Positions 23,731 through 29,378 are shown, counted from the first letter of the stretch. The stretch is DNA of 64,000 nucleotides from Promethearchaeota archaeon (GCA_019057795.1 JAHLWS010000049.1:32001-96000); one strand, 5' to 3'. Translations and numbers: made by a program. Notes: a model not told the origin generated them from the letters alone.

Positions 23731-23891
23731 TCGAAAATATATTTGTTTTCCTTTTCCTATTCCTTGAGTAATTTCGAATTTTTATCATTTCAAGATTTAA
23801 AATATTGAAATCTATTAATTCTTGGATAAGTAAATTATTAAATACAAATTTTGATATTATATTTAAAAAAACCCATTAATCAATTCCTCAA

Positions 23892-25058
23892 GTGAGAAAA
23901 TTGGAAGAAAATGAAAAGCCTTTAACACCCGAAGAAATTGAAAACCAAAAGAAGATTGTTGAAGATCTATATAAAAAAGAAAGGGATGAAAGAGAAAACT
24001 ACTTAAAAAGTTTCGAGGTAGAACGGAAAGCTGCTTTTGAAGAGAGTAAAGAATTGATTTCTGCCTTGATATCCGAGAAAAGTTTCAAGAGAGAAAAACA
24101 AAGAGAACGAGATTTAGAAAGAATGGAACTAAAACCCGACATTGAACAAACTGGTGAAGCAATCGAAAAAACCGTTGGAGAAAAAGCATTTATGAGAGAA
24201 AAACAAAGAGAAGCAGATTTTAAAAGGACAGATCTAAAGCCTGACTTTAGAGGTGTTAGTGAAGTAATAAGCAAAATCATCGATGATAAAGCGTTTTTAA
24301 TTGAAAAGAAACGGGAATCTGATGTCCGACGATTAAAAATAAAACCTGATATGGAAAGCGCAAGGGACGCAATTAGTAAAAGTATTAATGAAAAAGCTTT
24401 CGTGATTGAAAAAAAGAAAGAGAGCGATTCTCGTCGTTTAGAATTACATCCTGATATAGAAAAAACAGGAGAAACAATCTCTAAATCTATAGGTGAAAAA
24501 GCATTTGTTAGAGAAAAACAAAGAGAACGAGATTTTGAAAGAATGGAGCTAAAACCAGCCTTTATGAAAACGGGAGAGGCAATAAGTAAAACCGTGGCGG
24601 AAAAAGCATTTAGAAGAGATAAACAACGCGAAACGGATCAGAGAATGTTAAATTTGCATCCCAAAATTATTGAAAAAAGCGAAGCTATTAAAGCGTCTAT
24701 TGATGAAAAAGCGTTTATGATTGAAAAAAAGAAAGAGAGCGATTCTCGTCGTTTAGAATTACATCCTGATATAGAAAAGACAGGAGAAACAATCTCTAAA
24801 TCTATAGGTGAAAAAGCATTTGTTAGAGAAAAACAAAGAGAACGAGATTTAGAAAGAATGGAGCTAAAACCAGCCTTTATGAAAACGGGAGAAGCAATAA
24901 GTAAAACCGTGGCGGAAAAAGCATTTGTTAGAGAAAAACAAAGAGAACGAGATTTAGAAAGAATGGAGATTAAACCCGATATTAAAGGTATTGGCACTTT
25001 AATCGAAGGAAAGCTTGAAAAAATCGAACAAAAGAAAAAGGATGAAAATCTTACTTAA
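23892..25058 (+). CDS. charged protein with nine tandem 35-aa repeats (nebulin-like periodicity)
   Basis: repeat consensus P-x-[IFM]-x5-[AT]I-x-K-x-[IV]-x-EKAF-x-x-EK-x-RE-x-D-x-x-R-x-x-L, exact 35-aa period. Confidence 0.85.
   Translation: MRKLEENEKPLTPEEIENQKKIVEDLYKKERDERENYLKSFEVERKAAFEESKELISALISEKSFKREKQRERDLERMELKPDIEQTGEAIEKTVGEKAFMREKQREADFKRTDLKPDFRGVSEVISKIIDDKAFLIEKKRESDVRRLKIKPDMESARDAISKSINEKAFVIEKKKESDSRRLELHPDIEKTGETISKSIGEKAFVREKQRERDFERMELKPAFMKTGEAISKTVAEKAFRRDKQRETDQRMLNLHPKIIEKSEAIKASIDEKAFMIEKKKESDSRRLELHPDIEKTGETISKSIGEKAFVREKQRERDLERMELKPAFMKTGEAISKTVAEKAFVREKQRERDLERMEIKPDIKGIGTLIEGKLEKIEQKKKDENLT
24403..24925 (+). repeat. near-identical ~208-bp duplication at 315-bp offset inside the repeat gene
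   Basis: segment starting tgattgaaaaaaagaaagagagcgattctcgtcg at 24403 recurs at 24718. Confidence 0.85.
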
Positions 25059-25089: not shown

Positions 25090-25593
25090 TCATAAATGAA
25101 TATCAAATTTAAATAATGAATTTAAATTCATATTTTCTAACCTTTTTTTATATCTTAAAATTGATGGATCAATATTTCCATTAAAATGATTTATGTTATA
25201 TTCAAATTTTTTATAGAAATCCTCCATAATCTGATGTAATATTACTCTTTCTACTTGCAAATTTGTTTTCTTTGTAATCGCAATAACGGATAATCGACCT
25301 TTCCTTTCGTACAATATTCGGGTTTCTTTAAAGTTGATTTCTTGAATCTCGTCATCTATTGAATCGGGTTTGAGTTCAGCTATAAATTGGTCTAAAGCGT
25401 TTAAAAAACCACTAATTAAATCCCCATGGGATAAAAAGTTTGTCTTATTGGTATATTTATTGCTTAATAGTAAAGAACCAGTTAAATTGTCTAAAAAATA
25501 TAAAGCATAAAATCGATTTTCGTTTGAATTAAGTTTTTCTAATTTAAATCCATATGTTTTTTCTATACCTCTATTATTCCAATTGTACGACAT
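25090..25593 (-). CDS. longin/roadblock-like domain protein
   Basis: DLISGFLNALDQFIAEL...IQEINFKETRILYE...LHQIMEDFYKKF pattern typical of Asgard longin-like proteins. Confidence 0.65.
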   Translation of the reverse strand: MSYNWNNRGIEKTYGFKLEKLNSNENRFYALYFLDNLTGSLLLSNKYTNKTNFLSHGDLISGFLNALDQFIAELKPDSIDDEIQEINFKETRILYERKGRLSVIAITKKTNLQVERVILHQIMEDFYKKFEYNINHFNGNIDPSILRYKKRLENMNLNSLFKFDIHL

Positions 25594-27668: not shown

Positions 27669-29378
27669 TTGATACTTATGACAGAAGAAATTATAAGACG
27701 AACTACATCCATATGTCCAGAATGTTTACAACTTATCGCAGCGGAAATCTATGTCGATCCTGAAACTAACTGGGTCATGATGAGAAAAAATTGTGAAGAA
27801 CACGGCGACTTTAAAGATAAACTCTCAATTGACCCAATTGAATACAAATGGGCCGAAACCTTCACGGACGATATCGGGTCTACTATAAATAATTCTACTA
27901 AACCTGAATATTTAAGCTCAGGAATAAAAAAGAGTGTGAAAGGATGCCCATACGATTGTGGACTTTGCGAAAATCATCAAAGCGCTCCTAACATTTGCCT
28001 TATTGACATTACTAATCGTTGCAATTTAACATGTCCAATTTGCTTTGCAAACGCAAGCGCGACAGGGTATGTTGTAGAACCCACCTTTGATCAACTTGTT
28101 CTAATAATGGAACACTTCAGATCAATGAAACCCGTTGCGGCTGTTATGCTACAAATATCAGGTGGAGAACCCACTATGAGAGATGACCTACCAGATATAA
28201 TTCGTAAAGGGAAAGAACTTGGTTTTACTGAAGTTATGGTCACAACTAACGGCGTCAGATTTGCAAAATCTGTCGATTTCTTTCAACAATGTAAAGATGC
28301 CGGGATGGACGCCATCTACTTACAGTTTGATGCAACTGACGATCCAGAAGCCTGGAAAAAGATACGGGGAGTTAACCTATGGCCTTTAAAAAAGCGAGTA
28401 ATCGAAAATAGTCGAAAAATAGGATACTTTGGGATAATGTTAGTTCCGGTAATAGCTAAAGGCGTTAACGATCACCAAGTAGGAAATATTTTAGACTACG
28501 CAAAGGACAATAGTGATGTGATCTCTGGAGTAGTATTCCAACCTGTTTCTCTTTGTGGACGGATCAGTTTCGAGGAACTGATGGATTTGAGATATACAAC
28601 TTCAGATCTAAAGCTAGCAATTAATAAACACACAAATAATGCAATACAAAGATTTTACCCTATCGCATTTATGGCAAAAACGACTAGATTATTAGCTTGG
28701 TTCGATAATGTGCCACAGTTTAGTACGACGAGCCATAAAGACTGCGGATTCGCCACTATCATGATAATTGACGAAAAAGAGCAGTGGAAATCGCTAGACC
28801 ATTATTTTGACACGGAAGGGCTTGTAAGATGGTCAAATAAAGTTTATGACATGGTTCAAGGAAAAGAAGTTCCAAAACCTACGGGTTTCTTAAAAGGCAT
28901 AAAACTAGAAGATTTTGGCGCTGTTGCCAGCACTGTTGGAAAGTTTATTGACGATATGACCGACCTCGGATATCGGCAGATGATGAAGGCCTATTTCTTT
29001 GCAGGCTCTATTAAGTTTGTGAAGCAACCAGAGAAATTTTTAACTAGCAAAACTTATCAAGGTTTTGTACGATTGATTTTGTCTCCGAATTTAGCCTCTG
29101 CGGCGAGTTTCTTGCATTCGCGTAATCTTTTCATCTCGGCCATGCATTTCCAAGATGCATACAACTTTGACCTCGATAGAATTTGCAAATGCTTGGTACA
29201 CTATGGCGTAATTGACCCTGAAGACCATTCTAAAGTCCTAGAGATTCCTTTCTGTGCTATGAACACGCTACATAGAGAAAGAATAGAAAAGGGCAATGTA
29301 ATTTCAGATCAAGCTGCCATAAAGCCAGACATTATCCAAGCTGAAATAAAGGAATTGTTAGAAACCGTAAAAGAATAA
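27669..29378 (+). CDS. tes: radical SAM enzyme, tetraether lipid synthase (Tes/GDGT-MAS)-like
   Basis: TTSICPEC...CEEHG, GCPYDCGLC..H, TNRCNLTCPICFANA, MHFQDAYNFD, CLVHY...IPFCAMN. Confidence 0.78.
   Translation: MILMTEEIIRRTTSICPECLQLIAAEIYVDPETNWVMMRKNCEEHGDFKDKLSIDPIEYKWAETFTDDIGSTINNSTKPEYLSSGIKKSVKGCPYDCGLCENHQSAPNICLIDITNRCNLTCPICFANASATGYVVEPTFDQLVLIMEHFRSMKPVAAVMLQISGGEPTMRDDLPDIIRKGKELGFTEVMVTTNGVRFAKSVDFFQQCKDAGMDAIYLQFDATDDPEAWKKIRGVNLWPLKKRVIENSRKIGYFGIMLVPVIAKGVNDHQVGNILDYAKDNSDVISGVVFQPVSLCGRISFEELMDLRYTTSDLKLAINKHTNNAIQRFYPIAFMAKTTRLLAWFDNVPQFSTTSHKDCGFATIMIIDEKEQWKSLDHYFDTEGLVRWSNKVYDMVQGKEVPKPTGFLKGIKLEDFGAVASTVGKFIDDMTDLGYRQMMKAYFFAGSIKFVKQPEKFLTSKTYQGFVRLILSPNLASAASFLHSRNLFISAMHFQDAYNFDLDRICKCLVHYGVIDPEDHSKVLEIPFCAMNTLHRERIEKGNVISDQAAIKPDIIQAEIKELLETVKE

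Follow-up and report, generated by a model that had tools for sequence, protein, structure and literature searches.

GvpC, the outer protein of gas vesicles with its 33-residue helical repeats, and tropomyosin both present helical repeats that lie along a periodic protein lattice. In nebulin and its relatives nebulette, LASP and N-RAP, modules of about 35 residues carry an S-D-x-x-Y-K core and are grouped in super-repeats of seven. To our knowledge nebulin has no homologues outside animals, and a literature search found no paper linking Asgard archaea with nebulin-like proteins. Asgard actin regulators, as described in a 2026 study, are mainly profilins and gelsolins (PMC13716822); since this makes up the published repertoire, an Asgard side-binder has yet to be described.

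Here we analyse a repeat-protein gene in a 64,000-nucleotide stretch of DNA (hereafter the window) from a Promethearchaeota archaeon (GCA_019057795.1, JAHLWS010000049.1:32001-96000). The host is a Loki-type Asgard archaeon with a Lokiactin gene, and a reading made from the DNA alone (hereafter the sequence-only reading) had proposed that the gene encodes a nebulin-like, actin-binding repeat protein, either ancestral to or convergent with nebulin.

Gene, start codon and upstream region

The gene occupies positions 23892-25058 of the plus strand (388 codons plus TAA) and is open throughout. Two starts are possible, GTG at 23892 and TTG at 23901 (codon 4), and by this ambiguity the product may be of 385 rather than 388 residues. 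The GTG, together with a TTG or ATG three codons on, is kept in all orthologues examined, as is the frame, and codon 4 is ATG in several of them. The stretch GTGAG(G/A) ahead of codon 4 has a Shine-Dalgarno-like look.

Alignment of 14 orthologous upstream regions identifies a conserved block at 23824-23871 (plus strand), probably the gene's own promoter, which includes a TATA-like element, TTATATTTAAAAAAA, centred about 30 nt 5' of the GTG at 23892. This block of about 48 nt, GGATAAGTAAATTATTAAATACAAATTTTGATATTATATTTAAAAAAA, is near-invariant where the orthologous proteins share only about 50% identity, and is more conserved than the coding sequence of the repeat gene itself. Besides the TATA-like element it probably contains a further conserved regulatory site.

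Comparison with three orthologues gives dN/dS values of 0.13-0.38; because of these values and the conserved promoter block, the open reading frame at 23892-25058 is a real gene under purifying selection. Two minus-strand open reading frames, at 23999-24280 and 24638-24997, were rejected as shadows of the repeats, it being the plus-strand frame that is conserved and under purifying selection. Of the residues of the product 48% are charged (E/K/R), its pI is 8.9 and its net charge +6, and it contains neither cysteine nor tryptophan; across orthologues the net charge ranges from -23 to +20.

Repeat architecture

Nine cores of the form [IV]-[SGDNA]-[ED]-K-[AS]-F stand at residues 60, 95 and so on to 340, each spacing being exactly 35 residues, and the corresponding 105-nt period was picked up independently by Tandem Repeats Finder (score 361). 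The nine tandem 35-residue repeats claimed in the sequence-only reading are thus confirmed, and the core that it described is present in all nine, the first reading ISEKSF.

The array is preceded by an N-terminal head (residues 1-45, MRKLEENEKPLTPEEIE...LYKKE...; 23892-24026, plus strand) that is recognised by its invariant or near-invariant alignment columns, lies within the predicted helix of residues 13-78, and in the family carries the motif …EEKPLTPEEIE.QKK…. Module 1 (residues 46-80; 24027-24131, plus strand), placed by core spacing and by the module profile, has the core ISEKSF but no proline, and continues the N-terminal helix. Modules 2-9 (residues 81-360; 24132-24971, plus strand) are delimited by spacing, profile and structure prediction as eight exact 35-residue units opening with K/H-P, with the consensus K-P-D-[IFL]-E-K-x-x-E-A-I-x-K-S-[IV]-x-E-K-A-F-x-[IR]-E-K-Q-R-E-x-D-x-x-R-x-x-[LI]. 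The single proline that had been ascribed to every repeat therefore holds for these eight units but not for the first. A ninth K-P (residues 361-362) opens the C-terminal tail (residues 361-388, KPDIKGIG..IEGK.EKIE.KKKDE; 24972-25055, plus strand), a degenerate module without KAF that is defined by its conservation among orthologues; like the head, it is conserved in its own right, apart from the modules.

Within the array, a tract of about 210 bp at 24403-24612 (plus strand) matches a partner at 24718-24927 with three mismatches, at an offset of 315 bp or three modules, and is the source or the copy of a recent internal duplication or gene conversion.

Distribution of the family

Of 400 genomes from the phylum searched in six frames, 114 in all gave a match. 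The GTDB family to which the window belongs is represented by 134 genomes, and 109 of them have the repeat protein; within the same order, two sister families give weak matches (1 of 14 and 2 of 4 genomes). Outside these three families it is essentially absent from the phylum, as was also seen when the 400 genomes were rechecked with the family profile. The named orthologue records all derive from Promethearchaeota/Promethearchaeia metagenome-assembled genomes, apart from a few evidently mislabelled bins, and neither MK-D1 nor L. ossiferum is among the titled matches.

Searches with hmmscan returned no Pfam match at or above cut-off, and only noise from NCBIfam, bearing out the suggestion that the family is undescribed. 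The Pfam echoes Entericidin (21.7 bits against a cut-off of 23.3), CAT_RBD and UBA_SIK3 were set aside as matches of 12-22 residues between short amphipathic motifs and parts of small profiles. A profile built from 86 diverse modules matched 37 of 1.84 billion representative proteins, all of them family members or fragments, and found nothing meaningful in the PDB; a feature search of the ESM Atlas with the repeat protein likewise gave no usable match. A word-index homologue search at 1e-3 was blank, which, given the 114 genomes found by six-frame search, is an artefact of sensitivity, and an exact-sequence cluster look-up of two orthologues found none, probably because the GTG start had been read as valine. 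The family is conserved but unnamed, and is restricted essentially to one GTDB family of Lokiarchaeia.

Constancy of module length

Orthologues are of 283, 385-388, 455-458 or 493-495 residues, and so differ by exact 35-residue, whole-module steps. When the distance from each core to the next was counted in 57 distinct orthologues, 453 of 458 distances came to 35 or 70 residues; of the five exceptions, two stem from false cores in the head, two from masked runs of N and one from a secondary motif. In the flanking genes, which have diverged to a comparable extent, alignment gaps open 1.4-7.7 times per 1000 aligned residues. The 35-residue spacing pattern is far beyond chance. Identity between orthologous modules is 62%, compared with 48% between paralogous ones, amongst which a partial three-module (A-B-C) super-repeat can be recognised (module 4 resembling 7 and 9, 5 resembling 8, and 6 resembling 10). 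As orthologous modules are closer than paralogous ones, the modules are old and individually maintained, and their constant length therefore reflects constraint and not just recent homogenisation. The number of modules is less fixed, being 7, 9 or 12 among close relatives (the window copy has nine cores in 388 residues and its nearest relatives, at 88% identity, have 12 in 493), so that an exact 'ruler' length is not conserved.

Distant members (L093 of a sister family, and P0005, P0009, P0029 and P0035) retain the core A-I-x-K-x-[IV]-G-E-K-A-F under changed periods. In this small sample a period of 37 goes with no proline per unit, one of 35 with a single proline and one of 32 with two or more, and such an inverse relation, drawn from a handful of variants, would hold the physical pitch roughly constant. 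The divergent members P0001 and P0002 (loci L144-L146), which share the same gene neighbourhood, end in one or two tryptophan-bearing basic amphipathic motifs (…KWL[DE]QLK..RK…) that are absent from the window protein.

Gene neighbourhood

The repeat gene lies in the order DUF362 gene, 250-aa orphan, repeat gene, 167-aa gene (minus strand), 183-aa orphan, 68-aa zinc ribbon, 132-aa membrane protein (minus strand) and radical-SAM gene, which is retained in about 40 of 54 loci and also surrounds two members that have diverged strongly. Genera g7 and g13, which belong to the same GTDB family (loci L138-L142), cleanly lack the repeat gene: their 250-aa and 167-aa genes are separated by a gap of 80-150 nt, and the rest of the neighbourhood is intact. 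The polymorphism is one of presence or absence of a single gene at a fixed locus. Since the gene has its own promoter and converges with its downstream neighbour, the neighbourhood tells little about its function.

The convergent 167-aa neighbour (25090-25593, minus strand) has no Pfam match. Its nearest named ESM-Atlas cluster, 'Roadblock/LAMTOR2 domain-containing protein' (score 0.88), in which 22% of members carry Fuz_longin_1, can serve as a lead only; related genomes each contain several paralogous domains, some of them within proteins of 200-800 residues. Further downstream in the conserved neighbourhood, the radical-SAM protein (27669-29378, plus strand) has an N-terminal HMPTM-type zinc ribbon (PF23545).

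Predicted structure and the module surface

AlphaFold2 modelling of the full protein with a 20-row family alignment (mean pLDDT 68, pTM 0.20) predicts a long N-terminal helix spanning residues 13-78 (pLDDT 82-90), followed by a single helix for each module, interrupted at every K-P-D. For three modules modelled in isolation (residues 186-290, 105 residues; 104-row alignment), the prediction is an uninterrupted helix over residues 2-104 (pLDDT 80.7, pTM 0.30). The helical repeat unit envisaged in the sequence-only reading is thus supported by the models, at one predicted helix per module of about 35 residues. A Foldseek search of the PDB with the full model gave no matches at E<=10, as would be expected of an extended string of helices.

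Three other architectures were considered and rejected. A spectrin-like three-helix bundle, with a unit of 105-106 residues, is not supported, the three-module fragment being predicted as a single extended helix and the Foldseek search being blank. A canonical coiled coil, for which we looked for an occupancy of the a/d positions by hydrophobic residues of at least about 0.75 across several heptads without prolines, is incompatible with a best-register occupancy of 0.25-0.62 over most of the protein and with a proline each 35 residues. Class-A lipid-binding helices of the apolipoprotein or perilipin type are recognised by a high hydrophobic moment, a cationic interface and a HeliQuest-type discriminant above 0.68-1.34; the windows of highest moment (muH 0.5-0.59) have z of -2 to 0 and D below 0.68, and D exceeds 1.34 in only 3 of 371 windows.

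The module profile shows P2, I11, K18 and F20 to be invariant and A19 near-invariant, whilst E17, E23, K24, R26, E27 and R32 are strongly conserved (>3 bits), as is D29; conservation runs position by position over the whole module, its charged half included. On a helical wheel an apolar stripe is made up of I4, I11, I15 and I22 together with G8 and A19; F20 is set among the fixed charges, about 160 degrees from this stripe. With the stripe on one side and F20 on the other, the helix is under constraint on both its faces, which is what one would expect if it were held in a groove or between two surfaces.

Comparison with nebulin

The likeness to nebulin, nebulette, LASP and N-RAP is one of design. 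Both sets of proteins have modules of about 35 residues that are essentially one helix each and start at a proline, an acidic-x-x-aromatic core followed by charged residues, and a module length near the actin strand repeat; in both, too, the modules follow one another in long arrays free of gaps, a super-repeat of higher order is present and the module number varies between orthologues. In the window protein the gap-free tandem of helical modules of about 35 residues is indeed found, the helix being predicted. The core is nevertheless E-K-A-F and not S-D-x-x-Y-K, with F invariant, never replaced by Y, and S-D missing throughout the 86-unit profile. In place of the nebulin super-repeat of seven modules there is one of three, seen as a partial pattern together with the duplicate at 315-bp offset, and the net charge of the orthologues, from -23 to +20, contrasts with the uniformly basic nebulin. 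The arrays have only 7-12 modules, without the SH3 or LIM end domains, and occur in one family of Lokiarchaeia.

Profile searches gave a consistent picture. The Pfam Nebulin profile (PF00880, gathering score 20.1 bits) was absent from the hmmscan of the nine-module protein at E<=10, gave four weak matches over the whole of the host genome at the same threshold, none of them on the contig of the gene, and was not among the 25 commonest Pfam families for 104 three-module windows. The proposed relationship with nebulin is therefore not borne out, PF00880 being silent and the module profile recovering only its own family, and the suggestion that the repeats could be ancestral to nebulin is contradicted by their confinement to essentially one GTDB family and their clean absence from g7 and g13. 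What stands of the nebulin-like module is its design (a helix per roughly 35 residues, a proline at its start, an invariant aromatic residue and a charged core); its sequence does not conform.

True homology, with the lokiarchaeal repeat as ancestor or descendant of the nebulin/LASP repeat, can be argued from the equal nominal module length, the one proline per module and the acidic-x-x-aromatic-basic core (E-K-A-F-[RL] beside S-D-x-x-Y-K). Against it stand the silence of PF00880, the reverse profile search that returns only the lokiarchaeal family, the distribution over one GTDB family with weak relatives in two sister families, the super-repeat of three modules in place of seven, and the distant members with periods of 32-38 and no proline at period 37, and we consider it extremely improbable. 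Judged on sequence, the family does not appear to belong with nebulin, and the likeness would be one of convergent design rather than of descent.

Lokiactin and a periodic partner

Besides its Lokiactin gene, whose product has 381 residues and a pI of 5.2, the host genome contains three more genes of the actin family. Lokiactin identity is 95-100% throughout the GTDB family (13 sampled genera), also in g7 and g13, which have no repeat gene. Several genomes (loci L096-L137) carry a second copy at 81-84% identity, beside actin-family paralogues at about 43% and about 38%. The repeat gene is missing from g7 and g13 despite their almost unchanged Lokiactin. Absence of the gene from these genera and from nearly all other Asgard families implies that the repeat protein is not a core actin cofactor; with respect to actin it is at most an accessory, lineage-specific factor.

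The rise of the Lokiactin filament measured in situ is 27.9 Å per subunit (PMC9834061), from which the strand repeat is 55.8 Å per subunit. A helix of 35 residues spans 52.5 Å, or slightly more with the non-helical K-P-D hinge, and a proline-less one of 37 residues spans 55.5 Å (37 x 1.5 Å). This 5.5-nm match is weak evidence, the pitch of a proline-hinged helix being flexible.

In the mechanism that we propose, the product would be a cytoplasmic, non-enzymatic, rod-like protein, composed of a conserved helical head, nine to ten alpha-helical modules of about 5 nm with K-P-D as their hinge, and a tail that is short and likewise conserved. Every module would show one two-faced motif, with an apolar stripe (positions 4, 11, 15 and 22, and small residues at 8 and 19) on one face and, on the opposite face, the invariant Phe-20 among the fixed charges E17, K18, E23, K24, R26, E27, D29 and R32. 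With the pitch fixed at about 5.3-5.6 nm, modules in sequence could fill equivalent sites in sequence on a periodic partner, and both reach and avidity would be adjusted by the gain or loss of modules as entire units. The protein would thus act as a multivalent side-binder or stabiliser of that partner, for which the two-stranded Lokiactin filament would be the best geometric candidate.

It seems to us quite possible, if something short of probable, that a proline-hinged helical rod of this kind binds a periodic partner multivalently; the exact 35-residue spacing kept whilst neighbouring genes gather indels, and the predicted helix per module with no bundle, point in this direction. That the partner should specifically be actin is unlikely, the geometric fit being what speaks for it. 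Points against the proposed mechanism are the drift in charge between -23 and +20, the variable copy number and a gene context (own promoter, convergent downstream neighbour) that offers no functional link. Distinctly doubtful is the fully specified form of the proposal, an independently arisen archaeal F-actin side-binder in which each module would lie on one Lokiactin subunit, the pitch of about 5.5 nm being held by a trade-off between module length and proline content.

By analogy, GvpC and tropomyosin offer the closest precedents for a periodic partner, in that a fixed-period alpha-helical repeat matched to a lattice spacing would bind multivalently, and the conserved head and tail of the lokiarchaeal protein could permit end-to-end contacts as in those systems. 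There is no sequence relationship to either, and gas-vesicle genes were not noted. Tropomyosin, moreover, is free of prolines and forms a canonical two-stranded coiled coil; the lokiarchaeal modules, by contrast, are proline-hinged and have poor heptad occupancy.

Alternative readings

The rods might instead associate with one another, pairing or bundling through the I4/I11/I15/I22 stripe and F20, or might form a single-alpha-helix tether of adjustable length between partners bound at head and tail; this is possible, though on balance unlikely. A 35-residue period (5 x 7, that is five heptads, or three hendecads plus two residues) would carry the heptad phase across modules and hold chains in register, extended helices are predicted, the copy number varies freely, head and tail are conserved apart from the modules, and the high content of charged residues includes the i/i+4 E-K patterns typical of stable single helices. 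The likeness here is to ER/K single alpha-helices, which also combine such a composition (48% E/K/R in our case) with extended helices predicted without tertiary packing; ER/K helices are, however, of low complexity, whereas the module charges are conserved position by position, and a mere spacer would not need an invariant K-A-F and fixed charges in each module. For pairing or bundling, the hydrophobic a/d occupancy is only 0.25-0.6, a proline per 35 residues is unusual in coiled coils, and neither monomer model folds back (pTM 0.20 and 0.30). Quite improbable is an apolipoprotein-, perilipin- or LEA-like surface binder, in which proline-punctuated helices (3 x 11 residues plus K-P) would rest against a surface, be it membrane, lipid or another, or would have a protective role under stress. 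An 11-residue apolar pattern does underlie the module, positions 4-8-11, 15-19-22 and 26-30-33 corresponding to hendecad a-e-h (I-G-I, I-A-I and R-x-M), and the punctuation by proline recalls the 11/22-mers of exchangeable apolipoproteins, as the sub-threshold Pfam echoes recall small amphipathic families (Entericidin, Senescence). The third hendecad is nevertheless essentially charged, the invariant F20 sits on the polar face, and the 18-mers of highest amphipathicity (muH 0.5-0.59) carry a net charge that is negative or zero, with D below 0.68, so that, compared with apolipoproteins, the modules are acidic and under the lipid-binding thresholds; strict length and position-specific conservation of charge are also atypical of LEA or synuclein-like repeats.

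A different route to actin would be provided by tandem WH2 or beta-thymosin-like modules, each engaging one Lokiactin monomer, as in a nucleator of the Spire/Cobl/VopL type or a sequesterer. By eye, the K-P-D-[IM] start followed by an amphipathic helix loosely resembles the N-terminal helix of thymosin-beta/WH2, and a module spacing of about 35 residues is similar to that of tandem WH2 arrays. The Pfam WH2 (PF02205) and Thymosin (PF01290) profiles are, however, silent on the open reading frame at E<=10 in a search of the host genome, none of the modules contains the motif LKK[TV], and the module is predicted to be helical throughout, in contrast to the extended C-terminal half of WH2, which together render this reading very improbable.

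Implications

As it stands the family is a lineage-restricted orphan whose role is unproven. Multivalent binding of a periodic partner by a proline-hinged rod is the reading that we carry forward, and the exactly constant module length, near the Lokiactin subunit repeat, would make the protein an inexpensive, specific candidate for a factor that decorates filaments. Were decoration of Lokiactin true, this would be the first Asgard filament-decorating actin-binding protein known beyond profilin and gelsolin, and an instance of convergent evolution of the nebulin/tropomyosin design. Should the partner be other than actin, the family would still offer a clear example from nature of a helical scaffold whose length can be adjusted.
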